The notes under the pieces were generated by a model. It was not told the origin of the DNA, did not search any database, and saw nothing but the letters and a program-made list of their open reading frames with translations. A DNA stretch of 64,000 nucleotides from Eubacteriales bacterium (GTDB lineage: Bacteria > Bacillota > Clostridia > Oscillospirales > CAG-272): positions 57,793-121,792 of the forward strand of contig JAZUPD010000018.1 in the NCBI GenBank assembly GCA_045604985.1, written 5' to 3'. Position numbers and translations under genes: made by a program. Shown here in pieces: positions 19,383 to 60,053 of this stretch (positions are counted from its first letter, which is position 1; the number at the start of each line of letters is the position of its first letter).

Positions 19383-19446
19383 AGAACTTACAATACTAAC
19401 GTTTTGAAAGCTTTTGTCAAAACACGGCAAGAAAGGAATTTTAAAG

Positions 19447-22232: not shown

Positions 22233-22298
22233 ATATATAGTTTTACAATGGTGGAGAATTTTTGCAGGGTGGAGATTTACACCGAAAGGAGAACCAAA

Positions 22299-22613
22299 AT
22301 GTCAAAGGAAGCAATAGCTCACATAAGAGATGCTGAGGAGAAGGCAAGGCTCATCGTTGCGGAAGCGGAAAAAAATGCCGGACTTATGATATCTTCTGCT
22401 GAAAAGAATGCGGCAGACCTCAGAGCCGAGACCGAAAGGATCACCGGCGAGGACCTGAAGAAGACTCTTGATGCTATGCGTCAAAAATCCGACCAGCTTA
22501 TCGAAAAAAGCATTGCCGAAGCCAGAGCAGAGGCGGACGAGCTTCTTGAAAAGGCTGATATGAAAACGCTTTCGGCAGTAAAAAAAATAGTTTGGGAAAT
22601 AATCGAAGCTTGA
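22299..22613 (+). CDS. V-type ATPase small stalk subunit (G/H-like)
   Basis: 104 aa from the ATG at 22299, which follows AAAGGAG. Ala/Glu/Lys-rich coiled coil (EAEKNAGLMISSAEKNAADLRAETE). First gene of the ntp-like operon. Confidence 0.7.
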   Translation: MSKEAIAHIRDAEEKARLIVAEAEKNAGLMISSAEKNAADLRAETERITGEDLKKTLDAMRQKSDQLIEKSIAEARAEADELLEKADMKTLSAVKKIVWEIIEA

Positions 22614-22636
22614 GGAAGGGATAAGAGGAAAAATAT

Positions 22637-24568
22637 ATGGCAGTTGTAAAAATGAAAAAGCTGTCCGTTTTTGTTCATAAAAGGGATGCGAACAGGCTTA
22701 TCAGACGCCTTATACGACTGCGGTGTGTTGAGATAAAGCAGAGCGAGCTTGATGATGAAACGTCATCTTGTGAGAACGCAGACAACGGCTTCGCTGAGAT
22801 CGAAAACAATATCGCAGGTGCAGCCAGATGCCTCAAAGCTCTCTCGAAATACAGCGATAGAAAAAAGGGACTTGGGGTATCCAAAATACCGGTCAGACTT
22901 GATAAATTCAGAAGCGACGGCAGCTATGCAAGGGCTGTGTCGATCGTGGGCGAGACCGATGAGCTTCTCGCAAAAAGGGAGGAGCTTAAGGGGGTTATAG
23001 TAAAGGAAAAAGCAGCTCTTTCTTCTCTTGAGCCTTGGCAGGAATATGAGTTGCCCTTTGATTATGAGGGAACGGAAAAAACCGTAATTATTCCTGTAAC
23101 TCTACCGCCCTCCGCGGGGGAGGATAAAATCCGTGAGGTCCTTTGTGATATCGAGGCTGGGATGGAAAGGGTCGGAGGCGGCAGGAACGTTGCTTGCTAT
23201 GCACTGATATCCCATGTTTGCGCAATTGATGAAGCCCTTAGAAGGCTTGGAGCTATCGGAATGCTCAGAGTTCCATTCGAGGGGACTTCGGAACGGGCGA
23301 CAAAGCTGATTTCTGATAGAAAAAAAGCTATCGGAGCTGCTGAAAAAGCACTTCGTAATATAGAAAAACGCCTGAAAGAACTTGCAAAGGATATGGAATA
23401 TGTAGAGATACTGTTCGATGCCGAAAGCACCTCGCTTGTGGCGGAAAAATCAAAAACAAAGCTCGCATCAACCGAGCAGTGCGTTAATCTTTGTGGCTGG
23501 ATTCCTGAAAATGAGACCGAAAGAGTCTCGCAGGTGCTTTCAAAATTCAGCTGTGCATTTGAGATAAAAGACCCATGTGAGGACGAGGAGCCGCCCGTGC
23601 TTCTACGCAATAACTTTTTTGCAAGGACCTTTGAATGGGTGCTTGGAATGTACTCATATCCCAAATACGGCACGTATGACCCCACATTTATAATGAGTAT
23701 CTTCTATTTCATCATCTTCGGACTTATGTTTGCGGATGTTGGATATGGATTTATTCTGGTTGTAGGCTGTTTTGGTGCGCTGAAGCTGCTGAATCCCCGC
23801 AGAGGAATGAGAAATTTTCTTGCAATGTTTGGCTATTGCGGAATTTCTTCGATGATAATGGGCGTGCTTTTTGGAGCTTATTTTGGAAATCTGCCCCAGG
23901 CGTTCAGCGAATATATGCTCGGCGTGGAGGGCGCAAGCACAACGATGCAGACTGCTGTGCTTTTTGACCCCATGGCAGACCCCATGAGCTTCCTCATTTT
24001 GTCGATTGCCATAGGAGCGGTTCATCTCATTGCGGGAATGGCGGTGCAGTTTTATATTCTCTGCCGAAAGGGGCAGTGGCTTGACGCTCTTTTCGATATT
24101 GCAACGTGGTGGCTCGCCTTTGCGGGAATAGGGCTTACGTTTCTTTATCCGTGGGGAAAATATGTTGCTCTTGCGGGAGTTGCCTCTATTGTGCTTACAG
24201 GCGGAAGACGCGAGAAGAATATCATAATGAAGCTGGCAAAGGGCTTGCTTGCTCTATATGGAGCGGTGAACTATGCCGCAGATCTTCTTTCCTATTCGAG
24301 AATTCTGGCTCTTGGACTTGCCGCAAGCGTAATTGCGCAGGTTATCAACACCATGGGAACGATGGGAGGACCGAATTTCATTGGCTTTGTTATGATGATA
24401 CTTGTTTTCATCGTCGGACATCTGCTCAATCTCGTTATCAATGTGCTGGGTACCTTCGTTCATACCAGCAGACTTCAGTATATCGAATTTTTCGGAAAAT
24501 TCTTCGAGGACGGAGGAACTCCCTTCAAGCCCGCAGAGCCTTCCGATAAATATACAACAGAACAATAA
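22637..24568 (+). CDS. ntpI: V-type ATPase subunit I (membrane a-subunit)
   Basis: 643 aa. Soluble N-terminal half plus a C-terminal polytopic domain containing the conserved region FVHTSRLQYIEFF. Confidence 0.9.
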   Translation: MAVVKMKKLSVFVHKRDANRLIRRLIRLRCVEIKQSELDDETSSCENADNGFAEIENNIAGAARCLKALSKYSDRKKGLGVSKIPVRLDKFRSDGSYARAVSIVGETDELLAKREELKGVIVKEKAALSSLEPWQEYELPFDYEGTEKTVIIPVTLPPSAGEDKIREVLCDIEAGMERVGGGRNVACYALISHVCAIDEALRRLGAIGMLRVPFEGTSERATKLISDRKKAIGAAEKALRNIEKRLKELAKDMEYVEILFDAESTSLVAEKSKTKLASTEQCVNLCGWIPENETERVSQVLSKFSCAFEIKDPCEDEEPPVLLRNNFFARTFEWVLGMYSYPKYGTYDPTFIMSIFYFIIFGLMFADVGYGFILVVGCFGALKLLNPRRGMRNFLAMFGYCGISSMIMGVLFGAYFGNLPQAFSEYMLGVEGASTTMQTAVLFDPMADPMSFLILSIAIGAVHLIAGMAVQFYILCRKGQWLDALFDIATWWLAFAGIGLTFLYPWGKYVALAGVASIVLTGGRREKNIIMKLAKGLLALYGAVNYAADLLSYSRILALGLAASVIAQVINTMGTMGGPNFIGFVMMILVFIVGHLLNLVINVLGTFVHTSRLQYIEFFGKFFEDGGTPFKPAEPSDKYTTEQ

Positions 24569-25093
<525 letters not shown>

Positions 25094-25108
25094 GGAGAGA
25101 TTTTGAGG

Positions 25109-25792
25109 ATGACCGGTATTGACAAGATAACGGGCAAGATCATTTCCGAGGCAGAGGCGGACGCAGCGACGATAATATCGAGAGCGCAGGAAAGATGCGC
25201 CGAGATAATGTTTGCTTGCTCCGCAGAATGTGAAAAGATCAAGGCGGAGCTTGAGGAAAAGGCTCAGAGAGATGCGGAGAGCATCATTTCAAGGGCGAAA
25301 TCAGGTGCGGCTATGCAGAAGAGAAATATTCTGCTTTCCGCCAGAAGAGAAGCTACCGACAAGGTTTTCAAAACGGCATATAAGGAAATATTGAATCTTC
25401 CCGAGGAAAAATACTGCGAGGTGGTATCCCGCTTTGTTGCGGACGCCGTTCTCGTGCAGATGGAGAACGAAAAGACAAATATAGCTCTTTATGGTGAGGA
25501 GGAAGCGCTCCTTCCCGAAAAATACGAGCTTATATTCAATAAAAATGACAAAGAAAAGCTTTCTTCTGCAATACTTGAAGGAGTTGAAAGAATAGTCATC
25601 GGCAAAATGAGCCGAGACGAGCTTAAAAAACTGACGGTTGCAGAGGACACCGCCGATATTGATGGCGGAGTTATAGTTAGATTTGGAAGCGTTGAGTGCA
25701 ACTGTTCCCTTAAAACGGTTTTTGCTGAGCTTCGTGAGAGACTTGAGGGTGAGATAAGCACCTTGCTCTTCTCATTTGAAGAGGAAAAATAA
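25109..25792 (+). CDS. ntpE: V-type ATPase subunit E
   Basis: 227 aa from the ATG at 25109 (the ORF track uses TTG at 25103). N-terminal long helix and a C-terminal globular part (GGVIVRFGSVECNCSLKTVF). Position in the operon fits. Confidence 0.8.
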   Translation: MTGIDKITGKIISEAEADAATIISRAQERCAEIMFACSAECEKIKAELEEKAQRDAESIISRAKSGAAMQKRNILLSARREATDKVFKTAYKEILNLPEEKYCEVVSRFVADAVLVQMENEKTNIALYGEEEALLPEKYELIFNKNDKEKLSSAILEGVERIVIGKMSRDELKKLTVAEDTADIDGGVIVRFGSVECNCSLKTVFAELRERLEGEISTLLFSFEEEK

Positions 25793-25810
25793 GATGAAAG
25801 GAGAAGGGCA

Positions 25811-26794
25811 ATGGGTATAAGGAAGAAGAAAGACACCGATTATCTCTTTGCTTGCGCAAGAGTCCGTGCGGCGGAAAACCGTCTCATTGGCTCTGATAAG
25901 ACAGAGAACGCTATAAATGCAAAGGATGCTTCCGAGATCGAAGCTCTCATAGACTCTATAGGCACTTTCGAGAACGGCTCGGATAATCTCAGTGCATATC
26001 TCGGAAGAGCGTATTCCTTTATTGCCGAGATTTCTCCTTGTGAGAATATTGCATCATTTTTGCGCTACGGCTATGATTGCAACAATATAAAGGCGGCTCT
26101 GAAATGCCATTTCAGAGAGACAGACTGCTCCGAAATGCTCTTTTCATTCGGAACTGTGGAGATAGATAAAATACTTGCCATGCCAAAGGAGCTTGACTTC
26201 TCGGCTTTGCCCAAGAATATGAGCGAGGCGGCGTTGGAAGCATTTGATGCATATGCAAAAACAGGCGATCCCCAGCTTATCGACATCATTCTTGATAAGG
26301 CTTGCTATGCGGATATGCTTGATGCGGCGAGATCAGGTGACGATTTTGCTTATGACCTTGTAAGAGCGAAGATAGATCTTACAAACATAATGATGTGTAT
26401 AAGAATCATCCGCATGGGCAACGGTTTTTCCGAGAGAGCTGTGCTGGAAAGGTCGCTTATCGGGGGCGGTTATCTCGATGAAAAGAAGCTTTTTGAGGCA
26501 AAGACCGAAAACGAACTTGCTATGATGCTTTCGGGCAGTGAATACAGCTCTCTTTTGGCTTTTATGAACGATGAAGGCATATTTTCTCTTGCTGAGATCG
26601 AAAGAAGATGCGATGATATCTATATGAAAAAGGTGAGAACCGCAAAGTCTATTCCCTTTGGTGCTTCGGTTCTCTGCTCATATCTTGTGGCTGTGGAATA
26701 TGAGGTGAAAAATCTCCGCATAATCCTTGCAGGTAAGCGCGCGGGACTTTCGGGCGAAAAAATTCGTGAGAGAGTGAGGCTGAGCTATGTATAA
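25811..26794 (+). CDS. ntpC: V-type ATPase subunit C (d-type)
   Basis: 327 aa, assigned from operon position and size. The C-terminal motif YLVAVEYEVKNLRIILAGK is typical of the V/A-ATPase C subunit. Confidence 0.85.
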   Translation: MGIRKKKDTDYLFACARVRAAENRLIGSDKTENAINAKDASEIEALIDSIGTFENGSDNLSAYLGRAYSFIAEISPCENIASFLRYGYDCNNIKAALKCHFRETDCSEMLFSFGTVEIDKILAMPKELDFSALPKNMSEAALEAFDAYAKTGDPQLIDIILDKACYADMLDAARSGDDFAYDLVRAKIDLTNIMMCIRIIRMGNGFSERAVLERSLIGGGYLDEKKLFEAKTENELAMMLSGSEYSSLLAFMNDEGIFSLAEIERRCDDIYMKKVRTAKSIPFGASVLCSYLVAVEYEVKNLRIILAGKRAGLSGEKIRERVRLSYV

Positions 26795-27113
26795 GATAGG
26801 AATAATCGGAGACCGAGACAGCGTTCTCGGCTTTATGGCACTTGGTTTTGCCGTTTACGACGTTTCGTCTTGCGATGATGCGCGTGTAAAACTCAGAAAT
26901 GCCGTAAAAGGCGGGGATTTTGCTGTGCTTTTCATTACGGAAAGCATTGCGATGCAGATTGAGGACGAGATCGAAAAATATAAGGACCTGCCCCTGCCGG
27001 CAATAGTTTCCGTTCCCGGAAGAGACGGCAGCACGGGCTATGGAATGGAGAATATCAGAGATGCGGCACTTCGTGCCGTTGGAGCTGATATCCTTTTTGA
27101 AAATGATAAATAA
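26787..27113 (+). CDS. ntpF: V-type ATPase subunit F
   Basis: 108 aa beginning MYKIGIIGDRDSVLGFMALG, with VLFITESIA. Overlaps the upstream gene by 8 nt. Confidence 0.85.
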   Translation: MYKIGIIGDRDSVLGFMALGFAVYDVSSCDDARVKLRNAVKGGDFAVLFITESIAMQIEDEIEKYKDLPLPAIVSVPGRDGSTGYGMENIRDAALRAVGADILFENDK

Positions 27114-27137
27114 TAGCATAGAAAGGTAAAAACCGCT

Positions 27138-28919
27138 ATGGAAGAGGTTGTTGGAAAAATACTGAAGGTCTCCGGTCCTCTGGTAGTTGCAGAGGGAATG
27201 AGAGAAGCCAATATGTTCGACGTTGTCCGTGTTGGCGAAAAGAGACTTATCGGTGAGATTATAGAAATGCATGGTGATAAGGCGTCTATCCAGGTCTATG
27301 AGGAGACTGCAGGCGTTGGACGCGGAGATGTGGTCGTTTCAACGGGCGAGCCACTTTCGGTTGAGCTTGGTCCCGGACTTATCACGAATATCTATGACGG
27401 TATTCAGAGACCCCTTGAGACTATCCGAGAAAAGGTAGGCTCAAATCTTACGAGAGGTATAGATGAGCCTGCTCTTGACAGAACGAGGGTTTGGCATTTT
27501 GAGGCGGAAAAAAAGATAGGTGATATCGTTCTGCCCGGTGACGTTATCGGCTATGTACAAGAGACCGAGGTCATAAGACATAAGGTAATGGTTCCCCCGA
27601 AAAAGGGAGGAACATTGGTACAGATCAATTCGGGAGATTTCAAGGTCACCGATACTGTTGCAAAGATAAAGCTGGAGGATGGAAAAACCGACAGTTTGAC
27701 TCTTATGCAGAAGTGGCCTGTTCGTGTATCCCGTCCATATAAGGAAAAACTGCCCCCTGCAGAACCTATGATAACGGGACAGCGTTCTATCGACGCACTT
27801 TTTCCCATTGCAAAGGGCGGAACCGCTTGCGTTCCTGGTCCTTTTGGAAGCGGAAAGACGGTGGTTCAGCATCAGCTTGCAAAATGGAGCGATGTTGATC
27901 TTGTTGTTTATATCGGATGCGGTGAGCGCGGAAACGAAATGACAGACGTTCTTCGTGAGTTTCCCGAGCTTACCGATCCCAGAACGGGAAAATCCCTTAT
28001 GGAGAGAACGGTTCTTATTGCAAACACCTCGGATATGCCTGTTGCGGCTCGTGAGGCTTCTATCTATACAGGTATCACCATTGCGGAATATTACCGTGAT
28101 ATGGGTTATGCCGTTGCTGTTATCGCAGATTCAACATCCCGCTGGGCAGAGGCTCTCCGTGAGATGTCAGGCCGTCTTGAGGAAATGCCCGGTGAGGAGG
28201 GCTATCCCGCATATCTTACATCCCGTCTTGCAGGATTCTATGAAAGAGCCGGTAAGGTGGTTTGTCTCGGAACCGACGGCAGAGAGGGCGCACTCAGTGC
28301 CATCGGTGCGGTTTCACCTCAGGGAGGCGATATTTCTGAGCCTGTTACTCAAGCAACCCTTCGTATAGTAAAGGTTTTCTGGGGACTTGATGCATCGCTT
28401 GCATACAAGAGACATTTTCCTGCGATAAATTGGCTTAATTCCTACTCGCTTTACCGTGACCGCCTTTCGGATTGGTGTGCGGATAATATCGCAAAGGATT
28501 GGATGGCACTTACATCAAGAAGTCTTAAAACACTTCAGGAGGAGAGCGACCTTGACGAGATCGTTAAGCTCGTTGGTGTAGACGCACTTTCTTCCGAGGA
28601 CAGACTTACCCTTGAGGTGGCTCGTTCCATTCGCGAGGACTTCTTACAGCAGTACGCCTTTGACGATGTGGATGGCTATACTCCCCTTGATAAGCAGTAT
28701 GCGCTTCTCCGTCTCATCTTCTCCTATGAAGACAGGGCTAGAAAGGCACTCTCGGATGGGGCGTTGGTGCAGACGCTTGCCGATCTTCCCGTAAGAGAAA
28801 TGATAGGTAGAGCAAAGGCGATTCCCTATGAGGGCTTTAAGGCTGAATTTGAAAAGATCGAAGCAGAGCTTGCTTCGCAAATAGACGCTGCGGTAAGAGA
28901 AGCCGCAAGCGAGTTTTAA
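27138..28919 (+). CDS. ntpA: V-type ATPase catalytic subunit A
   Basis: 593 aa. Walker [10 protein letters not shown] and Walker B-region [13 protein letters not shown], plus the non-homologous insert typical of A subunits. Confidence 0.95.
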
Positions 28920-28933
28920 GGAGGACGGCGGAT

Positions 28934-30310
28934 ATGATTCGTGAATACAGAACAATTGAAGAAGTTGCCGGACCTCTGATGCTTGTAAAGCAGGTTGACG
29001 GCGTTAAATATGACGAGCTTGGTGAAATCGAGCTTCCGAGCGGCGAGGTGAGACGCTGCCGTGTTCTTGAGGTCAATGGCAGAGACGTTCTCGTTCAGCT
29101 TTTTGAAAGCTCAGCGGGACTTAATCTTGCTCAGAGTAAGGTGCGTTTTTCGGGACACGGAGTTGAGCTTCCCGTTTCAAAAAATATGCTTGGACGAGTT
29201 TTCAACGGTATGGGCGAGCCTATAGACGGCGGTGCAAAGCTCATTCCCGATAAATCTCTTGATATCAACGGCACGCCCATAAACCCGGCGGCGCGCTATT
29301 ATCCCTCCGAGTTTATTCAGACGGGCGTTTCCACCATCGACGGTCTTAATACTCTTGTCCGCGGTCAAAAGCTGCCTATTTTTTCCGGATCGGGTCTGCC
29401 TCATGCAAATCTTGCTGCACAGATAGCAAGGCAGGCAAAGGTCAGAGGTGGAGATTCCAAATTTGCGGTCGTTTTTGCCGCCATCGGAATCACCTTTGAG
29501 GAAGCAGATTTCTTTATTTCGGATTTTAAGAAGACGGGTGCTATTGATAGGACGGTTCTCTTTATAAATCTTGCGTCGGATGCTGCGATCGAGCGTATTT
29601 CAACACCCCGTATGGCACTTACCGCAGCGGAATATCTTGCATTTGAGTGCGATATGCATGTCCTCGTTATCCTTACCGATATCACCAACTATGCAGAGGC
29701 TCTCCGTGAAGTTTCGGCAGCGAGAAAGGAAGTCCCCGGCAGACGAGGATACCCGGGTTATCTTTATACAGACCTTGCAACAATGTATGAAAGAGCGGGA
29801 AGAAAGATGGGAAGCGAAGGCTCTATCACCATGATTCCGATCCTTTCCATGCCCGAGGACGATAAAACGCATCCTATCCCCGACCTTACGGGATATATCA
29901 CCGAGGGACAGATAATTCTTTCAAGAGAGATGTACCGCAAGGGATATATGCCTCCTGTTGACGTTCTTCCGTCCCTTTCCCGCCTTAAGGATAAGGGTAT
30001 TGGAGAGGGCAAGACCCGCGAGGATCATTCGGGAACAATGAACCAGCTCTTCTCAAGCTATGCGAGAGGAAGAGAGGCTAAGGAGCTTATGGTGGTTTTG
30101 GGCGAGGCGGCACTTACACCTGTTGACCGTCTTTATGCAAAATTTGCAGATGCCTTTGAGGCTGAATATATAAATCAGGGCTTCTATGAGAATAGAACTA
30201 TAGAGGAGACCCTTGATCTTGGCTGGAAGCTGCTTTCTCTGCTTCCCAGAAGCGAAATGAAGCGTATCAAGCCCGAGCTTATTGAAAAATATTGGGTCGG
30301 GGACAAATGA
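28934..30310 (+). CDS. ntpB: V-type ATPase subunit B
   Basis: 458 aa with [46 protein letters not shown]. Confidence 0.95.
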
Positions 30311-30357
30311 TAAAAACAAGGGAATGTTAGAATTTTGCGAAAGGAGCAGTTCCGAAG

Positions 30358-31029
30358 GTGGCAGATATACAACTTAATCCAACGAGAATGGAGATGAAAA
30401 AGCTCCAAACAAGATATATAACCGCAAGGCGCGGTCATAAGCTGCTGAAGGATAAGCGCAATGAGCTTATGAGACAGTTCCTCGTCGTGGTAAGAGAGGA
30501 TAAGAAACTGCGAGAGCAAGTTGAAGCAAAGCTTGCGACAGCATACGGGTCATTTTCGGTTGCAAGCGCAGTGAGCAGTCCCGAAATGCTTCGCGAGGCA
30601 CTTATCATGCCCAGAAAAGAGGGAAGCCTTGATGTTTCCTATAAGAATATGATGAGCGTAACCGTCCCCGTTTTTGATTATAAGACGGAGGGAGAGAGCG
30701 GTGCTATGAATTACGGAATGGCATTTACATCCGGAGAGCTTGACTCGTCGATAAAGGAGCTTGGAGAGGTGATGCAGGAGCTTGTGCGAATGGCGGAACT
30801 TGAAAAAACTGCCCAGCTTCTTGCGGAAGAAATCGAAAAGACCCGCAGAAGAGTAAACGCTCTGGAATATATCATGATGCCAAGATATCTTGAAGGTATC
30901 AAGCGTATCAAGATGAAGCTTGAGGAAAACGAACGAGGAAACCTCACAAGACTTATGAAGGTCAAAGACATGATGGTCAAAAAAACTCTTGCGGCAAAGA
31001 AAAATACGCCCGAGGGAGAGGATATTTAA
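30358..31029 (+). CDS. ntpD: V-type ATPase subunit D (central stalk)
   Basis: 223 aa with a GTG start, beginning MADIQLNPTRMEMKKLQTRYITARRGHKLLKDKRNEL. Long coiled coil and EKTRRRVNALEYIMMPR. Confidence 0.9.
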   Translation: MADIQLNPTRMEMKKLQTRYITARRGHKLLKDKRNELMRQFLVVVREDKKLREQVEAKLATAYGSFSVASAVSSPEMLREALIMPRKEGSLDVSYKNMMSVTVPVFDYKTEGESGAMNYGMAFTSGELDSSIKELGEVMQELVRMAELEKTAQLLAEEIEKTRRRVNALEYIMMPRYLEGIKRIKMKLEENERGNLTRLMKVKDMMVKKTLAAKKNTPEGEDI

Positions 31030-31294: not shown

Positions 31295-31396
31295 ATTCTT
31301 GATAACATTTGATCACGTTTGAATTTGTTGAATCGAAGATTTCTTGAGTCCTTATGTAAAATTTGCTTTATCAATGAAATGATTTGGGAGGTTGAA

Positions 31397-32257
31397 ATGT
31401 CCTGTATAAGAAGCGTAGAGCGCACGGCTGGAGCAAAAAAATATTCTGCCCATTGTCACGATAATGAGCATAGACTGATTTACGTCAGAAGAGGAAGAGG
31501 CAGGGTGCTGATTGGCTCAAAGGAATGGCTTATAGACCGTCCATCGGTAGTCTTTATCAGTAATCTTGAAAAGCATGATGTTTTTCCCGAGAGCGAGAGT
31601 TATGACGGATATTCTGTGGGGATATTTCCCTCTGAGGCGATGATAAAGATAAATTCGGATAAGCTTCTCTCGTCATTCTGCGACAGACCAACAGGCTTTT
31701 CCAACGTTTTCGTGGTAACGCATCTTGCGGGTGAGCTGAATATTCTCTTTGATGCACTTTATAAAGAGTATAATGAGCCACATAAGGATGTTGAAGATGG
31801 ATGCGACTCGATACTGAGAGTGATTCTTATGACTCTTTTGCGCAGTATCCCGAATGCCTTTCCATATGAAAATACTGAGAAGAGAGCGGTCGTTCAGGCT
31901 ATCAGGCGGAAGCTTGAGGGGAGTCTCAAGGAAGAGCTTTCGCTTGATGATATATCGGCGGAATTTCATATTAGTACATACTATCTCTCTCATATTTTCA
32001 AGGATATTACGGGATACAGCGTTAAAAATTATCGCCTCATTTTCCGTCTTGCAAACGCAAGAGAGCTGCTTGTTTCCTCGGAATATACGATAAATGAAAT
32101 TTGCAGCATGACGGGATTCCCTGATATGAGCAATTTTTCCCGCAGATTTAAATTTGAATACGGTGTCACTCCCACTGAATACAGAAAAAATATGGGCAGA
32201 ATATTCAGTCAACCCAAAAAGGAAAGAAAGACACAAATCGGAATTGAATTACTATAA
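31397..32257 (+). CDS. AraC-family transcriptional regulator (cupin sensor domain plus HTH_18)
   Basis: Start moved to the ATG at 31397, which follows GGGAGG. The C-terminal double HTH includes ISAEFHISTYYLSHIFK and ICSMTGFPDMSNFSRRFK. Confidence 0.85.
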   Translation: MSCIRSVERTAGAKKYSAHCHDNEHRLIYVRRGRGRVLIGSKEWLIDRPSVVFISNLEKHDVFPESESYDGYSVGIFPSEAMIKINSDKLLSSFCDRPTGFSNVFVVTHLAGELNILFDALYKEYNEPHKDVEDGCDSILRVILMTLLRSIPNAFPYENTEKRAVVQAIRRKLEGSLKEELSLDDISAEFHISTYYLSHIFKDITGYSVKNYRLIFRLANARELLVSSEYTINEICSMTGFPDMSNFSRRFKFEYGVTPTEYRKNMGRIFSQPKKERKTQIGIELL

Positions 32258-32381
32258 AAAATAACTCACAGAAGAGCTTTCAAGCATAATGCTTTTTCGT
32301 TTGTCTTATAGTTCGCTAAATATCTGTTTAAGCAGTGCGAGCGGTCGGTCAAAATAGATTTAAAAGTTAAGTAAGGCCGTT

Positions 32382-33098
32382 TTATTCGTTTGCTGTTTCC
32401 GTTTCTTCCTTTTCCGAAGAAGAAACGAGTTTTCGCAAAGCATCCATTCTTGAGTCAAGCTCTGCGCTGAGCGAGGCACAATATATAAGCTCCTTTGCCA
32501 TCTTCTCGGTAAATTCGAAGTCCTTTTTATAATGAAGTTGATGCTCCAGGCTCGCCCAAACATCCATTGCGATGGTGCGGAGCTGTATCTCAACCTTCAT
32601 ACTTCTTTTTTCATGAGCGAGAAAAATAGGCACTTTGACTATTAGATGCAGACTTCTGTATCCGTTTTTCTTTGGTTTTTTGATATAGTCCTTTTTCTCT
32701 ATGAGAGTCACGTCATCCTGACTGAGAAGTGCATCTGCAAGGGTATAGACGTCCCTTGGGAAGGAGCAAACCACTCTTACCCCCGCCACGTCGGAGAGGT
32801 TTTCCTCGATAGATTCGGGAGTGAGGGCAAGACCTCGCCTTTCTATTTTTTCTTTGATGCTCAGAGGGCTTTTGAGACGGGATTTTATATCGTTTATGGG
32901 ATTTCTGTCGTGTGTGAGCGAAAATTCCTCGTTCAGAACATTGAGTTTTGTTTCGACTTCCATCATGGCGCATCGGTAATATGCCATCAGCTTATTATAG
33001 CGTTCTACCCAATCTTTCGATTTTTTAATAAAGCTCTCGCTGAAAAGATCTTCAATCTTTCCGCTTTCCAAAGCGGAAATTATATCATTATTCTCCAC
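32382..33098 (-). CDS. Small alarmone synthetase (RelQ/RelP-type GTP pyrophosphokinase)
   Basis: 238 aa RelA_SpoT synthetase domain: DVAGVRVVCSF, NGYRSLHLIVKVP, EIQLRTIAMDVWASLEHQLHYK. No hydrolase domain. Confidence 0.85.
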   Translation of the reverse strand: MENNDIISALESGKIEDLFSESFIKKSKDWVERYNKLMAYYRCAMMEVETKLNVLNEEFSLTHDRNPINDIKSRLKSPLSIKEKIERRGLALTPESIEENLSDVAGVRVVCSFPRDVYTLADALLSQDDVTLIEKKDYIKKPKKNGYRSLHLIVKVPIFLAHEKRSMKVEIQLRTIAMDVWASLEHQLHYKKDFEFTEKMAKELIYCASLSAELDSRMDALRKLVSSSEKEETETANE

Positions 33099-33417: not shown

Positions 33418-33446
33418 TTGACAATTCGGGGAAAATGAGTTAAAAT
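33418..33446 (+). promoter_or_regulatory. Sigma-70-type promoter of the BMP ABC-transporter operon (TTGACA-17-TAAAAT)
   Basis: TTGACA at 33418-33423, a 17-nt spacer, and TAAAAT at 33441-33446. This leaves a ~90-nt AT-rich leader. Confidence 0.5.
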
Positions 33447-33544
33447 ATCTTCGTATTCTTATTATTATATTCCCTTTAAAATAAGTGATGTTTTTACTCG
33501 GCAAAAAGCCGTGTGAAATAAAAAATTTTTGGAGGAAAAATACC

Positions 33545-34819
33545 ATGAAGAAACTTTTATCCATCGTTCTTGCTCTCATCATGCTCGTTTCCTGCTTTGC
33601 TCTTGCAGCTTGCGGCGGTGCTGAAGATGATGCGAAGGACACAGATGCGGCTGATACAGGCGCAGCTGACACAAACGGCGAGGTTGCCGCTAATGCTGAC
33701 TTTAAGCTTGGCGTTATTCTTCTCCACGACGAGTTCTCTACCTACGACCTTAACTTTATGAACGGCGTAGAAGAGGCTAAGGCGGCTCTCGGTCTTACAG
33801 ACGAGCAGGTTATCATGAAGAAGAACATCCCCGAGTCCGACGCTTGCTACGAAGCTGCTTGTGACCTCGTTGACGAGGGTTGTGACGTTATTTTTGCTGA
33901 CTCCTTTGGTCATGAAACATATATGATCAAGGCAGCAAAGGAATTCACAGATGTTCAGTTCTGCCATGCAACAGGTACGATGGCTCATACAGAGGGTCTT
34001 GCTAACTATCACAATGCATTTGCTTCTATCTACGAGGGCAGATTCCTTGCAGGCGTTGCTGCAGGTCTCAAGCTCAACGAGATCATCGAAGCAGGTAACC
34101 TTAAGGGCGAAGTTCCGAAGATGGGTTACGTTGGCGCATTCACATATGCAGAGGTTATGTCCGGCTACACATCCTTCTACCTTGGCGCAAAGTCTGTTTG
34201 CCCCGATGTAGTTATGGACGTTCAGTTCACAGGCTCTTGGTATGATGAAAATGCAGAGAAGACAGCAGCTCAGGCTCTTATCGCAAACGGCTGCGACCTT
34301 ATCTCTCAGCATGCAGACTCTATGGGTGCTCCCACAGCTTGTGAGGAAGCAAACATCCCCAACGTTTCCTATAACGGAAGCACAGTTGAGGATTGCCCCA
34401 ACACGTTTATCGTAGCTTCCAGAATCAACTAGGCTCCTTACTTTGAGCTTATCTGCAAGAACACAATGGCAGGTGAGGCTATTCCTACCGACTACACAGG
34501 TACTATCGCTACAGGCTCCGTTGTTCTTACAGATGTAAACACACAGGCTGCAGCAGCAGGCACAGTAGAGAAGCTCGAAGAGGTTAAGGCAGGTCTTCTT
34601 GACGGTTCTATCAAGGTATTCGACACAGCTGCTGATAACTTCATCACAGTTGGCGGTGCAAAGCTCGATTCCTACATGGCAGACGTTGATACAGACGCAG
34701 CTTATGAAAAGGATACAGAGGTTGTTTCCGACGGTTACTTCCATGAGTCCGAATTCAGAAGTGCTCCTTACTTCGACGTTCAGATCGACGGTATCACACT
34801 TCTTAACAGCGCATACTAA
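33545..34819 (+). pseudogene. BMP-family (PnrA/Med-like) ABC transporter substrate-binding lipoprotein, interrupted by a single in-frame TAG at 34430-34432
   Basis: Lipobox LVSCFALAAC-GG follows the ATG at 33545 (RBS GGAGGA). ORFs 33485-34432 and 34466-34819 are in the same frame. The 33 nt between them (APYFELICKNT) are open and continue the BMP-like sequence. Without the TAG the product would be 424 aa. Confidence 0.8.
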
Positions 34820-34838: not shown

Positions 34839-34868
34839 GTGGCGGAGCAAACGCTCCGCCACATTTTG
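34839..34868 (+). terminator. Intra-operon hairpin (partial terminator/attenuator) between the binding-protein and ATPase genes
   Basis: GTGGCGGAGC-aaac-GCTCCGCCAC (10-bp stem) followed by ATTTTG. The arrangement is common for over-expressing the binding protein relative to the membrane components. Confidence 0.55.
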
Positions 34869-34910: not shown

Positions 34911-36482
34911 GTGGAAAACTCTGTTGCACTTGAGCTTCGAGGCGTTACAAAGACCTTTGGAAAGGTCATAGCCAATAATAATGTTGATCTGACTGTTTAT
35001 AAGGGGGAGATTCTTTCTATCCTCGGCGAAAACGGTTGCGGAAAAACGACTCTTATGAATATGATATCGGGTATCTACTTCCCCGATAAGGGCCAGATAT
35101 TCGTTGACGGACGAGAGGTCGTCATTCGTTCGCCAAAGGATGCTTTTGGCTATAAGATAGGTATGATACATCAGCATTTCAAGCTTGTTGATGTTTTTTC
35201 GGCAAGCGAAAATATCGTGCTTGGAATTGATGACGGCAAAAGATACAATATTAAGGATGTAAATAACCGTGTGCTTGAAATTTGCGAGCGTTACGGATTC
35301 AATATAGACCCCAAAAAGAAGATTTATGAGATGTCGGTTTCGGAAAAGCAGACCGTTGAGATAATCAAGGTCCTTTACCGAGGAGCGGATATCCTTATTT
35401 TGGACGAGCCTACTGCCGTCCTTACGCCTCAAGAAACGGAAAAGCTCTTTGATGTGCTTCGCCGAATGCGTGATGACGGAAAGGCTATTATGATAATCAC
35501 TCACAAGCTCCACGAGGTGCTTTCGGTTTCGGACAGAGTTGCAGTCCTTCGCCGCGGCGAGCATATTGCAACGGTTGAAACTGCTACCGCTACCGAGAGT
35601 ATGCTTACAGAGATGATGGTCGGCAAAAAAATAACTCTTAATATCGACAGACTAGATCCCGTTTCTCCCACGGAGCGACTTGCTCTTGAGGGCATAAACT
35701 GCACAAGTCACGAGGGAATCAAGCTTCTTGATAATGTTTCCTTTACCGCAAATTCGGGCGAAATTCTCGGTATTGCGGGCATTGCGGGAAGCGGGCAGAG
35801 AGAGCTTCTTGAAGCCATTGCGGGGCTTCAGCACCTTGACAGCGGTACAATAACATATAAAGACCCCAAAACAGGTGCGGATGTTAATCTCCGCGATAAA
35901 ACACCCATTCAGATAAGAGACCTTGGTGTCAGACTCTCATTTGTCCCCGAAGACAGACTCGGAATGGGACTTGTAGGAAACATGGATATCATAGACAACA
36001 TGATGCTCCGCAGCTATAAGAAGGGTACTTCCATGTTCCTTGATAGAAAAGCTCCCAAGAATCTGGCAAAGGAGATAATTCAGAGCCTTGAAATTGCAAC
36101 TCCCGGTGCAACCACTCCGGTTCGCCGTCTTTCGGGAGGTAATGTTCAGAAAGTTCTTGTGGGACGAGAGATATCCTCCGCACCGTCGGTGCTTATGGCG
36201 GCATACCCCGTTAGAGGACTTGATATAGGCTCTTCCTATACTATTTATAATCTTCTCAATGACCAGAAGGCAAGAGGAGTTGCTGTTATTTTCGTTGGTG
36301 AGGACCTTGACGTTTTGGTTGAGCTTTGCGATAGGATCATCGTGCTGGCATCGGGTAAGATAACGGGTATCGTTGATGCAAGAAAGACCACGAAGGAAGA
36401 GATCGGCTTGCTTATGACAAAGAGCACCTCGATTTATGAGGATGCAGAAAAATGCGAAAAGGAGGAAACGGATAATGGCTAA
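34911..36482 (+). CDS. ABC transporter ATP-binding protein with duplicated NBDs (sugar/nucleoside uptake type)
   Basis: 523 aa, GTG start after GGAGGT. First Walker A GENGCGKTT, signature VSEKQTVEI, Walker B ILILDEPT. The second NBD has a degenerate P-loop GIAGSGQRE and LSGGNVQK. Confidence 0.9.
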   Translation: MENSVALELRGVTKTFGKVIANNNVDLTVYKGEILSILGENGCGKTTLMNMISGIYFPDKGQIFVDGREVVIRSPKDAFGYKIGMIHQHFKLVDVFSASENIVLGIDDGKRYNIKDVNNRVLEICERYGFNIDPKKKIYEMSVSEKQTVEIIKVLYRGADILILDEPTAVLTPQETEKLFDVLRRMRDDGKAIMIITHKLHEVLSVSDRVAVLRRGEHIATVETATATESMLTEMMVGKKITLNIDRLDPVSPTERLALEGINCTSHEGIKLLDNVSFTANSGEILGIAGIAGSGQRELLEAIAGLQHLDSGTITYKDPKTGADVNLRDKTPIQIRDLGVRLSFVPEDRLGMGLVGNMDIIDNMMLRSYKKGTSMFLDRKAPKNLAKEIIQSLEIATPGATTPVRRLSGGNVQKVLVGREISSAPSVLMAAYPVRGLDIGSSYTIYNLLNDQKARGVAVIFVGEDLDVLVELCDRIIVLASGKITGIVDARKTTKEEIGLLMTKSTSIYEDAEKCEKEETDNG

Positions 36483-37560
36483 TGTAAAAAAGCACGAGCC
36501 TCTTTTTCACATCGTTAAAAGAGACAGAATGCCTCTCTGGCAGTCGCTTCTTGTAAGATTTGGAGCAATAGCCCTCGGGCTTCTTTTCTGCGGACTTCTT
36601 TGTAATATAATTCTAGACGTTAGGCCTATGGAGCTTTACAAAACTCTTTATGACGGTGTTTTCGGAACTGAAAGAAGAATCTGGAAGATGGCAAAGGACT
36701 TGGCTGTTCTTCTCTGTATCTCCCTTGCCGTTACACCTGCTTTCAAGATGAAATTTTGGAATATAGGCGCAGAGGGACAGGTTCTTATGAGCTGTCTTGC
36801 TTCTGTTGCCTGCACCATCTATTTCGGCGGCAAGATGCCAAATTGGGCACTCCTTGTCTGCATGGCGGCAGCTGCAATTCTTGCAGGTATGGTCTGGGCT
36901 GTTATCCCCGCTATCTTCAAGGCAAAATGGGATACGAACGAGACGCTTTTTACCCTTATGATGAACTATGTTGCAACTCAGCTTGTTGCATATTTCCTTA
37001 TAGTTTGGGTACCCTCGGGCTCAAGCTCCCTTGGTGAGCAAGCGTTCGGACATATGCCCATCGTTTATCACCGCTATTTTATCCTTATAGCAGTGGTTGC
37101 GGTGCTTACCGTGTTCATGTATATCTATCTTAATTATTTTAAACAGGGATACGAGATATCGGTGGTGGGTGAGAGTCAAAAGACAGCCTGCTATATCGGT
37201 ATAAACGTAAAGACGGTAATTATTCGTACACTTATCGTTTCGGGTGTTCTTTGCGGAATTGCAGGCTTCCTTATCGTCAGTGCGCTTGACCATTCGGTAA
37301 CGACAGACGCCGTAGGCGGCAGAGGATTTACGGCGATAATGGTTTCGTGGCTTGCAAAATTTAATCCCCTTATCATGGTCGCTACCTCGTTCCTTATCGT
37401 TTTTCTCCAGCAGGGCGTTTATGAATTTGCAAATGACTATGGAATAAGTACCGCATTTCAGAATATCATTGTCGGTATAATTCTTTTCTTCGTGATCGGT
37501 TGCGAATTTTTCATCAATTATAAAATAATGTTCAGAGGTAAGGGGGTAGCTAAAAAATGA
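36475..37560 (+). CDS. ABC transporter permease (BMP/nucleoside family)
   Basis: Polytopic membrane protein. Start moved to the ATG at 36475 (MANVKKHEP), which follows AAGGAGGA and overlaps the upstream stop by 8 nt. Confidence 0.85.
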   Translation: MANVKKHEPLFHIVKRDRMPLWQSLLVRFGAIALGLLFCGLLCNIILDVRPMELYKTLYDGVFGTERRIWKMAKDLAVLLCISLAVTPAFKMKFWNIGAEGQVLMSCLASVACTIYFGGKMPNWALLVCMAAAAILAGMVWAVIPAIFKAKWDTNETLFTLMMNYVATQLVAYFLIVWVPSGSSSLGEQAFGHMPIVYHRYFILIAVVAVLTVFMYIYLNYFKQGYEISVVGESQKTACYIGINVKTVIIRTLIVSGVLCGIAGFLIVSALDHSVTTDAVGGRGFTAIMVSWLAKFNPLIMVATSFLIVFLQQGVYEFANDYGISTAFQNIIVGIILFFVIGCEFFINYKIMFRGKGVAKK

Positions 37561-38519
37561 TAATAGATTATATCCTCAATGCTATCGCCATTGGTATGAC
37601 ATTTCTTTATGGTTCAACAGGCGAGATAATCACCGAAAAAGCCGGACACCTTAATCTTGGAATACCGGGAGTTATGTGCGTAGGTGCGGCGGGCGGCTGT
37701 GCAGCTCTCCACTATATGATAGTGGGCGGCATCACAAACGGATTTTTGCTCGTTTCTGTGGGAATACTTGCATCTTTCATCGCCGCTTTCCTCATGGGCG
37801 TGATTTTCAGCTTCCTTGCGGTAACGCTCCATGCAAACCAGAATGTTACGGGTCTTGCAATGACAACCTTCGGCGTGGGTCTTATGAAGTATATCATGTT
37901 CGGACTGAAGCAGGGAAATTCGATTCCTTATCTTAAGGCGCTTTCGGCATTCAGATTCCCCTTTGCTTCTCAGACAAACGGTCTCAAATACTGCGGAGTT
38001 ATGGTTTTCCTCGCACTTATCGTTGCTCTTCTATCTTCCTTCGTACTCTTTAAGACAAAGGTAGGTCTGCACCTTCGTGCGGTGGGCGAAAATCCTGCAA
38101 CAGCGGATGCGGCGGGCATCAATGTAACTCTTTATAAGTATCTTGCAACAAGCATCGGTTGCGGAATTTCGGGACTTGGCGGTCTTTGCTATATCATGGA
38201 TTATGCAGGCTCCCGCGAAAGTTACCTCAGCATCGAGGCTCTTGGTTGGCTTGCGGTTGCGCTTGTTATTTTTGCTCTTTGGAGACCTCACCTCAGTATT
38301 TTTGGTTCTGTTATCTTCGGAGCACTTTTCATTGCGGGGCAGTTTATCCCGATCCTTATTCCACTTAAATTTTTGCAGACCATGACGGCGGCTCCTCTTC
38401 TCAAAATGCTGCCTTATGTGGTAACTATTATAGTCCTTACCGTAACGAGTATTCGTGATAAAAAGGAGAATCATCCTCCTCAGGGACTTGGACTTAATTA
38501 TTATCGAGAAGAAAGATAA
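37557..38519 (+). CDS. ABC transporter permease (BMP/nucleoside family, second subunit)
   Basis: 320 aa polytopic protein with an ATGA stop/start overlap with the upstream permease. Confidence 0.85.
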   Translation: MIIDYILNAIAIGMTFLYGSTGEIITEKAGHLNLGIPGVMCVGAAGGCAALHYMIVGGITNGFLLVSVGILASFIAAFLMGVIFSFLAVTLHANQNVTGLAMTTFGVGLMKYIMFGLKQGNSIPYLKALSAFRFPFASQTNGLKYCGVMVFLALIVALLSSFVLFKTKVGLHLRAVGENPATADAAGINVTLYKYLATSIGCGISGLGGLCYIMDYAGSRESYLSIEALGWLAVALVIFALWRPHLSIFGSVIFGALFIAGQFIPILIPLKFLQTMTAAPLLKMLPYVVTIIVLTVTSIRDKKENHPPQGLGLNYYREER

Positions 38520-38520
38520 A

Positions 38521-38566
38521 ATACAGAGGCTGAGCCAAAATTTCGGCTCAGCCTCTGTATTTTTCG
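38521..38566 (+). terminator. Rho-independent terminator of the ABC operon
   Basis: ATACAGAGGCTGAGCC-aaaatttc-GGCTCAGCCTCTGTAT (16-bp perfect stem) followed by TTTTT. Confidence 0.85.
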
Positions 38567-38611: not shown

Positions 38612-39391
38612 TCAGGATAGAGAATCAGCCTCTTTATCATCCGAATAAGCATCAATTCCTGAAAGGCGTTGGACGGGCTTGAAACCGTCTATCTCTCCGC
38701 GTTGCATTGCACCGAATATGCGGTAACGAAGCCCTTTATGCTTTCTGTCAAGGTCAAGGAGCAGCTTTTTCATCTCCTCGCGTTCGGTTTTTCCGTCTGC
38801 GGGACAGCTTGATCTAACAACCGGAAGTTCATTTTGTGCGGCAAAGTATCTTACATCCTTTTCCGGCATATACACCATGGGGCGAATCAGATTGAGTTCT
38901 ATCCTTGAAAGATAGGAAACGGGCGAAAAGCACCCTAGTCTGCCCTCAAAGAAAAGATTGAGCATAAAAGTTTCAACGGCATCGTCAAAATGATGCCCCA
39001 GTGCCACAGATGTACATCCAAGCTCTTTTGCTGCATTGTGCAGTGCTCCTCGGCGCATTTTTGCACAGAGAGAACAGGGGCTTTTTTCTTTGCGAACATC
39101 AAAAATTATTTTAGCTATCTGAGAGGGGACGATATGGTATTCCACATTAAGGCGACGGCAAAGTTTTTCGATCTCTGAAAAATCAGTACCCTCAAAGCCC
39201 ATATCAATCGTTATTGCAATAAGCTCAAATTTTATTGGGTAAAAACGGCGCAGAGCCGCCATTGCACAGAGAAGAGTCAGCGAATCCTTGCCCGCCGAGA
39301 CACCAACGGCGATTTTGTCGCCTTCTTTTATCATTTGGTAGTCGTCAACGGCTCGCCGAACATAGCTTAAAAGTCTTTTTGTATCCTTCAT
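38612..39391 (-). CDS. ttcA: TtcA-family PP-loop ATPase (tRNA 2-thiocytidine synthetase-like)
   Basis: PP-loop VGVSAGKDSLTL. Cys motifs CSLCAKMRRG and SSCPADG are typical of the Fe-S dependent TtcA family. Confidence 0.8.
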   Translation of the reverse strand: MKDTKRLLSYVRRAVDDYQMIKEGDKIAVGVSAGKDSLTLLCAMAALRRFYPIKFELIAITIDMGFEGTDFSEIEKLCRRLNVEYHIVPSQIAKIIFDVRKEKSPCSLCAKMRRGALHNAAKELGCTSVALGHHFDDAVETFMLNLFFEGRLGCFSPVSYLSRIELNLIRPMVYMPEKDVRYFAAQNELPVVRSSCPADGKTEREEMKKLLLDLDRKHKGLRYRIFGAMQRGEIDGFKPVQRLSGIDAYSDDKEADSLS

Positions 39392-40173
39392 AATTCCCCT
39401 TCAAAAGCTTCAAAAGAGCAGTTTTTATATATGTTTTTTGCATCCTCGCTTTCGGTTCGGTGACCTGTTTTATCTCCGTCACAAAGATGCAGGAAAAGTG
39501 GTTTTGTTAGATTAAGTCCCGTTTTTCCGCCTTTCTTTGCTTCTACAAGCATCATAGATGGTGCGGTGACCTCATCGGCACATACAAAGGTCATTCTCTT
39601 TGGCTCTAATTTGTGTTTTCTCATTGCCGCCAGAAGATCCGTCATTCTGTCGGGACGGTAGACGCAATAGAATAAGCCACCGAATTTCAGAATTCTTGAT
39701 GCAGCGGCACAGAAATCCTCAATATCTCCGCAGACCTCGTGTCTTGCAATGAATTTTTCATCATGCTCGTTCCTTTTTCCCGAATCCATACGCATATAGG
39801 GAGGGTTTGAAAAAACGATGTCAAATTCTCCGCCCAAGGTCTCTGCCCTAAGGTCACGCACATCGGCACAAATAGTTTTTATTACGCTATCCAGCCTGTT
39901 AATAGCCGAATTTCGACGGCAAAGCAGAGCGAAATCCTCTTGAACTTCTGCAATATATATTTTTTTGAACTTGCCTTTTGAAGCGCAAAGTAGGGAAATT
40001 ATTCCCGTGCCGCCTCCAAGCTCAAATGCTCTTGCATTTTTTGCGGTACGCATAAAAGCGGCGAGCAGATACGCATCGGTTCCAAAGGTGAGTCCATCTT
40101 TTTTCTGAATAAGGCGAATATTCTCATTGACCGTATCCAGCCTTTCGCCTTCAAATAAAATGTTATCGGTCAT
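39388..40173 (-). CDS. tRNA1(Val) (adenine37-N6)-methyltransferase (YfiC/YabB/TrmN6 family)
   Basis: SAM-binding ELGGGTGIISL and catalytic FSNPPYM (NPPY) motifs. ATGA overlap with ttcA. Confidence 0.8.
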   Translation of the reverse strand: MTDNILFEGERLDTVNENIRLIQKKDGLTFGTDAYLLAAFMRTAKNARAFELGGGTGIISLLCASKGKFKKIYIAEVQEDFALLCRRNSAINRLDSVIKTICADVRDLRAETLGGEFDIVFSNPPYMRMDSGKRNEHDEKFIARHEVCGDIEDFCAAASRILKFGGLFYCVYRPDRMTDLLAAMRKHKLEPKRMTFVCADEVTAPSMMLVEAKKGGKTGLNLTKPLFLHLCDGDKTGHRTESEDAKNIYKNCSFEAFEGEL

Positions 40174-44365: not shown

Positions 44366-44905
44366 ATGAAAGACGAAAAGAAAATTTATAAAATGGTACT
44401 GTCTGCCTTCTTTTTAGCTTTGGCATATGTTTTACCTTTCCTTACCGGACAGATACCCGAGATTGGCTCAATGCTCTGCCCCATGCATATTCCAGTCCTT
44501 CTTTGCGGCTTTGTCTGCGGTTGGCCATGGGGACTTGCTGTGGGCTTTATAGCTCCTGTTTTTCGCTCGCTCATCATGGGAATGCCACCTTTTTTACCTT
44601 ATGCTCTTGCTATGGCATTTGAGCTTGCTGCATACGGTGCTTTTTCGGGATTTATGCATAGATATCTACCAAAAAGAAAACCATTTATCTATTTTTCGCT
44701 TCTCATCGCAATGATAGCAGGCAGACTTGTATGGGGAGCGGCAATGTTCATTCTTGCTGGTATAAAGGGCGAAGGCTTTACTATTTCCGCCTTCCTTGCG
44801 GGAGCTATTACAAATGCTCTCCCGGGCATAATAATTCAGATAATTTTAATACCCGTTTTAGTTATGATAATCGACAGCCCAAAAATTCTTAAATTGAGGA
44901 ATTGA
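44366..44905 (+). CDS. ECF transporter S component (substrate unknown)
   Basis: 179 aa with about 5-6 TM segments. ECF S-component-like pattern (LCPMHIPVLLCGFVCGWPWG). Directly downstream of mtnN and 1 nt upstream of the kinase-like gene. Confidence 0.6.
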   Translation: MKDEKKIYKMVLSAFFLALAYVLPFLTGQIPEIGSMLCPMHIPVLLCGFVCGWPWGLAVGFIAPVFRSLIMGMPPFLPYALAMAFELAAYGAFSGFMHRYLPKRKPFIYFSLLIAMIAGRLVWGAAMFILAGIKGEGFTISAFLAGAITNALPGIIIQIILIPVLVMIIDSPKILKLRN

Positions 44906-46237: not shown

Positions 46238-47008
46238 TTAAAGCTGTTTTTTATTGAAGACGGGGATGCTGATAGATATAAGGGCGACGCTGATTATAAA
46301 AGTAATAATAATTGTTGCAAAATAATCGCTTGCATTTTCCGCTCCGACGAGCAATTTTCCACTGTTCATAAGAGACGTTGGGAGATATTTTGCGGTTTTT
46401 GGGACGATCCCAATAATATATAGACAAAAAATACTACCGCCCGTGCCTACAAGCACCATGCCACTATTCCTTGCCAAAACCGAGAAGAAAACGGTAAGGG
46501 CTATGGTAAATATCCCGAAAATGAAGCAATTTAAAACAGCGGGGAAAAGTCCGAGGGCAATGCTGTTATCCCAAAAATAAGCGTTATAGGCATAAGTGAT
46601 GCCAAAGCAGAACCAATAACCCACCGTCCATACGACAAACATCAAAAGTGACTTGGCAAGCAGAGCTTTATATCGTGCAAGACCCTTTGTGAGAATGAGC
46701 ACCAGAGTTCCGGATTCATATTCCTTTGTAAAGATTCCGCTGTAAATGAGAACAAATGCGATAAGAGCCATGGGAATATTCTTGAAAAACTGCGTCCATG
46801 AGGTCAGTGCATCAACCGTAACCTCATTTATCGCCATTCCGCTTGCCGAAAGCTCCTCAGAGAGCATTTCCATAAGAAAAGGAGTCAGCTTTGCAACGGC
46901 AGGATTCATTATTCCGAAGGCAAAAAACAGTATGCCGAGTATCAACAAATTTCCGTTTCTCATGCTCTCAAGAAGTTCTTTTCTAAAAAAAGAAATGAAT
47001 GACCTCAT
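46238..47008 (-). CDS. ABC-2 family transporter permease
   Basis: 256 aa with 6 TM segments. ATGA overlap with the upstream ATPase gene. Confidence 0.8.
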   Translation of the reverse strand: MRSFISFFRKELLESMRNGNLLILGILFFAFGIMNPAVAKLTPFLMEMLSEELSASGMAINEVTVDALTSWTQFFKNIPMALIAFVLIYSGIFTKEYESGTLVLILTKGLARYKALLAKSLLMFVVWTVGYWFCFGITYAYNAYFWDNSIALGLFPAVLNCFIFGIFTIALTVFFSVLARNSGMVLVGTGGSIFCLYIIGIVPKTAKYLPTSLMNSGKLLVGAENASDYFATIIITFIISVALISISIPVFNKKQL

Positions 47009-59569: not shown

Positions 59570-59646
59570 GGGGCATTAGCTCAGTTGGTTAGAGCTACCG
59601 GCTCATAACCGGTCGGTCCGGGGTTCGAGTCCCTGATGCCCCACCA
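59570..59646 (+). tRNA. tRNA with CAT anticodon (elongator tRNA-Met, or tRNA-Ile2 if C34 is lysidinylated); CCA encoded
   Basis: Hand-folded cloverleaf of 77 nt. Acceptor GGGGCAT/ATGCCCC, D-arm GCTC-AGTTGGTTA-GAGC, anticodon arm ACCGG-CTCATAA-CCGGT (CAT at 59604-59606), variable loop CGGTC, T-arm CGGGG-TTCGAGT-CCCTG, discriminator A, CCA. G1-C72 pairs, so it is not an initiator. Confidence 0.9.
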
Positions 59647-59651
59647 AAAAA

Positions 59652-59682
59652 ACAGATTTCAATGCGAAATCTGTTTTTTTTA
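59652..59682 (+). terminator. Rho-independent terminator after the tRNA
   Basis: ACAGATTTC-aatgc-GAAATCTGT followed by TTTTTTTT. Confidence 0.8.
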
Positions 59683-59689
59683 TTAAAAT

Positions 59690-60053
59690 ATGTTCGAAAT
59701 AACTTTCTTCTTCCACAGCATCGAAAAAATCCGTATTTTTTCATTACAGCAAGAGGGTGTTTTTCCACATGGGCAAGAAGAAGCTCGATGTTCTTATCCT
59801 TACGTTTATCATATAGTGCTTCAACGGCATTCATTGCCGTTGAGTCAAGGGAATTTACTGCACCCAAGTGAAGAATGAGATATTTTATATCTTCGTCGTC
59901 AAGAGCAACTCCGGATGCAAGTGCAAGGGCGATTGAAAGAGGAAGGGCAATTATTGCAACTATAATCCCCGCTATGACATCGGAAACGAATTGCTTTCCC
60001 GAATAGTTTTTAATTACAGAAAAGAACTTTGGCTTCAGATAAAAATTATTCAA
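59690..60053 (-). pseudogene. SulP-family anion permease remnant: N-terminal ~48 aa fused in frame to the C-terminal STAS domain, with the membrane core deleted
   Basis: The ORF 59595-60053 begins like SulP permeases (KPKFFSVIKNYSGKQFVSDVIAGIIVAIIALPLSIALALASGV). It jumps directly to a STAS-like end (DEDIKYLILHLGAVNSLDSTAMNAVEALYDKRKDKNIELLLAHVEKHPLAVMKKYGFF). The C-terminal frame then degenerates and reads through the tRNA terminator and the tRNA. Confidence 0.65.

Follow-up and report, generated by a model that had tools for sequence, protein, structure and literature searches.

An in-frame TAG at an invariant tryptophan codon of a BMP-family lipoprotein gene from a Clostridia genome, most likely a very recent nonsense mutation

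The DNA analysed here (the window, 64,000 nucleotides in length) carries on its forward strand the gene of a BMP/PnrA-family substrate-binding lipoprotein (33545-34819, 424 codons), which is the first gene of an otherwise intact ABC transporter operon and is broken at codon 296. Counted from the ATG at 33545, this codon reads TAG in frame (34430-34432), and the local translation runs from ...FIVASRIN through the stop into APYFELICKNTMAGEAIP.... Past the TAG, the reading frame is open for 128 more codons (34433-34819) up to its natural TAA at 34817-34819, and this segment is intact and without decay. When X was placed at the stop, the 424-aa product scored 88 bits with the Pfam family Bmp (PF02608), well over its 24.1-bit cut-off, and the alignment, covering residues 73-329, crosses the TAG. 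A sequence-only reading of this DNA had proposed a single BMP-family gene split by one TAG; since both the frame and the PF02608 match continue across the stop, this description is borne out.

The features required for expression and export of the lipoprotein were read from the sequence. A site resembling a promoter (TTGACA-17 nt-TAAAAT, 33418-33446 on the forward strand) with 11 of 12 consensus matches is located 5' of the operon and presumably drives its transcription, and a GGAGG ribosome-binding site (33531-33535, +) lies 9 nt 5' of the ATG. The gene starts with a lipoprotein signal peptide, MKKLLSIVLALIMLVSCFALAAC (33545-33613, +), ending in the lipobox L-A-A-C, in which Cys23 is encoded at 33611-33613. 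The lipobox was assigned by eye, and the alignment showed that signal peptide and lipobox are kept in the nearest BMP homologues. Lipoproteins of the BMP/PnrA type (PF02608) include Treponema pallidum PnrA/TmpC and Borrelia BmpA-D. The PF02608 match, the lipobox, the operon order and the component sizes observed here all agree with importers of this type, and, judging from the family, the product probably binds nucleosides. What sets the window copy apart from these lipoproteins is the premature TAG at codon 296.

Downstream of the BMP gene, a GC-rich hairpin (34839-34862, +; 10-bp stem with 8 GC pairs) followed by a T-run separates it from the ATPase gene and is likely to act as a partial intra-operon terminator. 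The ATPase gene (34911-36482, +) has a GTG start after GGAGG and encodes a fused double-domain ABC ATPase of 523 aa (orthologues 522-525 aa). It is followed by two permease genes with BPD_transp_2 domains, permease 1 (36436-37560, +; 374 aa with an uncertain start, orthologues 361-378 aa) and permease 2 (37557-38519, +; 320 aa, as in its orthologues). A long palindromic, terminator-like hairpin with a 20-bp stem (38518-38563) closes the operon and is common to the convergent ttcA gene. The ATPase, recognized by its domain match like the permeases, and both permeases are full length, as the orthologues are, and the gene order BMP, double ATPase and two BPD_transp_2 permeases is also found in the relatives. 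Comparison of the window with these relatives gave dN/dS values of 0.03-0.05 for the ATPase, 0.02-0.05 for permease 1 and 0.02-0.03 for permease 2, which points to strong purifying selection on the rest of the operon. Sequence, profiles and orthologue sizes thus agree with the earlier statement that the promoter, lipobox, ribosome-binding site and three downstream transporter genes are intact.

Synonymous divergence from the relatives differs along the operon, with dS of about 0.3 in the BMP gene, 0.5-0.6 in the ATPase and 0.6-1.0 in the permeases. The low value of the BMP gene and the hairpin at 34839-34862 agree with a first gene that is codon-biased and expressed at a high level, part of whose transcription ends ahead of the transporter genes. 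In the window, an AraC-family regulator gene and a small gene with a RelA/SpoT domain (alarmone synthetase-like) lie upstream of the BMP operon (31319-33098), and the corresponding pair is located downstream of the operon in two relatives, L001 (5855-7486) and L084 (15337-17078). The differing placement represents a local rearrangement among close species. In another relative, L085, the downstream synteny is the same as in the window, namely ttcA, methyltransferase, ferredoxin, ricT and holB.

Several other genes of the window were characterized as well. A 728-aa protein (19414-21600, +) combines Big_2, cohesin and dockerin domains, which are cellulosome-type scaffolding parts, and adjoins a V/A-type ATPase operon (22248-31029, +) whose subunits I, B and D match Pfam; the two together fit fibre-degrading gut Clostridia. 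On the reverse strand, a single 869-aa ORF (60177-62786) joins a translational GTPase similar to Tet(M)/EF-G to an NYN nuclease domain of the YacP/Rae1-like kind at the C-terminus. Its GTPase part contains GTP_EFTU and EFG_III/IV/C domains and reaches 400 bits with the tet_protect model, below the 775-bit cut-off, and the NYN domain occupies residues 726-866 (2.5e-47). Such a fusion would bring together a GTPase that binds the ribosome and a ribosome-associated RNase domain. Three ORFs are without a Pfam or NCBIfam match (1682-3343, -, 553 aa; 44366-44905, +, 179 aa; 46238-47008, -, 256 aa), and the longest of them, with 553 aa, scores well as coding sequence.

To find which residue belongs at codon 296, 5.8 billion proteins were searched, among which full-length BMP homologues numbered in the thousands. 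The top one has 425 aa and 94% identity, and the closest full-length ones share 94-96%. Column 296 is an invariant Trp in the alignment of the 15 nearest homologues and is Trp in all 131 full-length homologues; the same residue is kept in the remote solved structures 3S99 (basic membrane lipoprotein) and 6PI5 (AtzT). No homologue was found that ends at codon 296 or continues as a separate downstream gene. At the DNA level, the closest relatives are the ENA contigs L001-L003, the MAG RGIG6239 (L004) and L084-L086. Codon 296 is TGG in the six closest ones (about 87-88% nucleotide identity) and in L005 as well, and the 90 bases around it are nearly identical between the window and the relatives. 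In a metagenome scan that left the middle base of the codon free, 35 of 35 contigs read G and hence TGG, all of them distant (≤75% nucleotide identity), while a longer 52-base pattern had given no match in the first metagenome scan. The sequence-only reading had pointed to Trp (TGG) as a candidate at this codon, and both the PF02608 homologues, which carry Trp in this column and run past it, and the sister genomes, which read TGG, confirm that suggestion. Since all relatives have TGG and the homologues continue, the window differs from them by one G-to-A transition at 34431.

The TAG allele itself was traced to one source. In a collection of 15 billion proteins, the 295-aa and 117-aa fragments flanking the stop came from only one NCBI contig (148,969 bp), and a cluster look-up assigned the permease 2 product of the window to the same single contig. 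Exact-product searches with the 295-aa fragment and permease 2 returned no contig, and among the members of the 90% protein cluster, identity to the window does not exceed 96%. A scan of genome collections gave other species only (≤95% amino acid and about 87% nucleotide identity), with the nearest DNA being 87-88% identical across the operon. As the protein, genome and metagenome collections searched gave no further genome of this species, the TAG is without independent confirmation.

If the gene had been broken for long, the segment behind the stop should differ from that of intact relatives. Compared with the 131 homologues, the mature BMP protein has no private residue either before or after the TAG, so that the stop is its sole private state. 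For codons 297-424, dN/dS is 0.11-0.22 between the window and its relatives and 0.06-0.18 among the intact relatives themselves. An apparent surplus of window-specific non-synonymous changes after the TAG was considered as a trace of decay and rejected, as the residues in question (ADN...K.D) are shared with the intact sequences P0002 and P0003 and none is private. The lack of private residues and the dN/dS values, similar to those of intact relatives, suggest that the part behind the TAG has been under purifying selection essentially since divergence. Since no downstream decay is seen, the TAG should be of very recent origin, an artefact or translated; more specifically, as neither relaxed selection nor further lesions were found after the TAG by private residues and dN/dS, the event appears very recent or artefactual.

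We then considered how TAG is used elsewhere in the window and in its relatives. A census of the 54 window genes (19,177 codons) counted 111 TGG and one in-frame TAG. These genes end with TAA in 33 cases and TGA in 21, and none ends with TAG. The TAG at 34430 is the only one in the window with strongly coding sequence on both flanks, and no such TAG was found in the loci of five close relatives. In the nearest relatives, 2 of about 74 called genes terminate with TAG, compared with about 12% in the wider family. The chance of observing no TAG stop in 54 genes is 0.23 at a usage of 2.7% and 0.06 at 5%. The weight that the sequence-only reading had given to a non-standard TAG from the absence of TAG terminators is therefore largely gone, and the avoidance of TAG terminators seems to be a trait of the lineage and not particular to one genome. 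In the relatives, TAG does terminate genes, as both TAG-ending genes stop there at their natural C-termini. One of these is the ttcA orthologue of a sister species (GCA_964411355.1; L085, 8459-9217, -), in which the TAG stop follows ...AYSEE; the window ttcA (38612-39391, -) has AAA where L085 has TAG and reads 7 more codons to a TGA.

Two window ORFs that seemed to end with TAG stem from the first rough gene calling and were rejected as TAG-terminated genes. ORF 13295-13552 is antisense inside the gene of a 590-aa ABC half-transporter (12655-14427, -). ORF 59595-60053 (-) is a 152-aa deletion remnant of a SulP-type transporter, in which the first-helix motif FVSDVIAGIIVAIIALPLSIALALASGV is joined directly to the STAS domain (Pfam 7e-9); it enters the antisense of a tRNA-Met gene (59570-59646) and ends with its TAG there. 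Being an antisense ORF and a remnant, neither of them informs on TAG as a terminator.

The machinery that might decode a TAG was also looked for. Neither a tRNA with a CUA anticodon nor pylT was detected in the 64-kb window with Rfam and ARAGORN, the sole tRNA being tRNA-Met(CAU), and Rfam gave no riboswitch in the window. Pfam and NCBIfam scans of about 40 of the 54 window gene products revealed no pylS/B/C/D-like product and no release factor. A candidate position for prfA beside a HemK-like methyltransferase gene was dismissed, as the gene at 39388-40173 is TrmN-like, lies in a holB-ricT context and is not prmC. The search for pyl genes and a tRNA(CUA) that had been proposed for the genome was therefore negative for the tRNAs of the window and for the gene products scanned.

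Combined, a very recent TGG-to-TAG nonsense mutation in the BMP lipoprotein gene is the most likely explanation, with a probability of about 0.58. The stop stands at a column that is sense in all homologues and is one substitution away from the expected codon. A single transition leads from TGG to TAG, and this is the classic way in which pseudogenes acquire in-frame stops (Shulgina & Eddy 2021, PMC8629427). Real decay is also present nearby in the window, in the form of the SulP/STAS remnant. The proposed course of events would begin with one G-to-A transition at 34431 that converts Trp296 TGG into TAG read as a stop, the A at 34431 being probably real and not a consensus error. Translation would then halt after residue 295 and leave the periplasmic-binding-protein fold without its C-terminal 128 residues (30%). 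A lipoprotein truncated in this way is presumably inactive, and, with the end of the fold missing, the receptor of the BMP/PnrA-type (nucleoside-type) importer would presumably be non-functional, while the ATPase and permease genes, which have their own ribosome-binding sites, would stay intact. The result would be a loss-of-function allele of recent origin that is fixed or dominant in the population sampled and was caught in one metagenome-derived assembly. Like the young TGG-to-TAG/TGA nonsense pseudogenes described before (PMC8629427), the window gene shows a single transition, its stop falls on a Trp column that is conserved, and a suppressor tRNA was not found; it differs from them in being still without secondary lesions.

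A sequencing, assembly or consensus artefact ranks second after the nonsense mutation and is a possible, if less favoured, source of the TAG. According to this explanation, the organism has TGG, and the A reflects a base-calling or polishing error or a minority strain variant in the consensus. The TAG is present on one contig of one assembly with TGG in every relative, and an operon that is otherwise perfect, with no decay downstream of the stop, is what an artefact predicts. However, the window comprises 64 kb without other signs of poor quality, as it contains no Ns, and neither frameshifted or split genes nor any other broken gene were seen among the about 40 products scanned with Pfam and NCBIfam. 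Consensus assemblies seldom contain substitution errors, and a random substitution creates a stop in only a few per cent of cases. From such general reasoning, genuine nonsense alleles are expected to outnumber error stops per genome. Nevertheless, a real mutation and a consensus or base-calling error predict exactly the same pattern. Moreover, the knockout of a binding protein in a strongly constrained operon should be selected against, which means that the allele, if real, must be very young, unless the transporter is dispensable or redundant.

The explanations in which the TAG is translated have no positive support. Partial readthrough of a real TAG, either by near-cognate decoding or by a suppressor tRNA encoded elsewhere, would keep the gene functional and would account for the fully preserved 128 downstream codons and the intact operon; but this preservation is equally well explained by recency or error, the about 19,200 codons of the window genes contain no other in-frame TAG, the window has no CUA-anticodon tRNA and the sister species have a plain TGG, which makes readthrough improbable. 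To our knowledge, no readthrough-promoting element exists for the context of codon 296. It is still harder to believe that TAG is no longer a stop in this organism, being unassigned or newly captured as Trp after the loss of RF1, with codon 296 as its first sense use. The absence of TAG at the ends of all 54 window genes and the position of the single in-frame TAG exactly on an invariant Trp column would agree with this proposal, and a stop at a conserved Trp position is also what is seen in the bacterial stop-to-Trp reassignments of UGA (Mycoplasmatales and others, genetic code 4). Unlike in those genomes, which have many such codons each, the codon here is UAG and a single TAG stands against 111 TGG; unlike in genetic code 4, TGA is an ordinary terminator, ending 21 of the 54 window genes. 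Across these genes and the loci of the five relatives, no in-frame TAG at a conserved sense column was found beyond codon 296. The low usage of TAG stops in the nearest relatives, with chances of 0.06-0.23 for none in the window, the termination of real genes by TAG in the relatives, including the syntenic ttcA orthologue in L085, and the missing tRNA(CUA) of the window likewise argue against reassignment. In addition, the stop-codon reassignments known from bacteria all concern UGA, and pseudogenes are a recognised cause of spurious stop-at-Trp signals, as transitions from UGG are the preferred origin of their in-frame stops (PMC8629427). An early codon capture in an uncultured ruminant-gut Clostridia lineage, in which TAG is purged as a terminator, RF1 is lost or dispensable and a mutated tRNA-Trp(CUA) starts to decode TAG as Trp, is accordingly very unlikely; if it were true, codon 296 would be among the first sense uses, and no bacterial chromosome would have shown a reassigned UAG before. 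Least credible of all is that the TAG encodes pyrrolysine, for which the in-frame UAG, as in pylTSBCD systems, is the sole argument. The position is an invariant Trp, the sisters have TGG, and, in contrast to pyrrolysine systems, neither pylT or another tRNA(CUA) in the window nor a pylS/B/C/D-like product among the about 40 scanned was found, and the BMP family is unrelated to the methylamine methyltransferases. We know of no pyrrolysine in the BMP family. The four explanations considered by the sequence-only reading are thereby narrowed to a recent nonsense mutation or an assembly or sequencing error; as the sister genomes read TGG, readthrough is disfavoured and a non-standard reading of TAG is unsupported.

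With the recent nonsense mutation as the preferred explanation, the lesion has the textbook signature of a nonsense pseudogene and is nothing new in kind. It calls for caution in so far as a solitary in-frame TAG in a Trp column, in a genome that makes little use of TAG, mimics an early change of the genetic code, although a TGG-to-TAG nonsense mutation or a base error is expected to leave just this pattern. For annotation, the gene should provisionally be marked as a pseudogene with an internal stop. The biological weight of the finding is small: at most, a nucleoside-type importer would just have been deprived of its binding protein in one strain.
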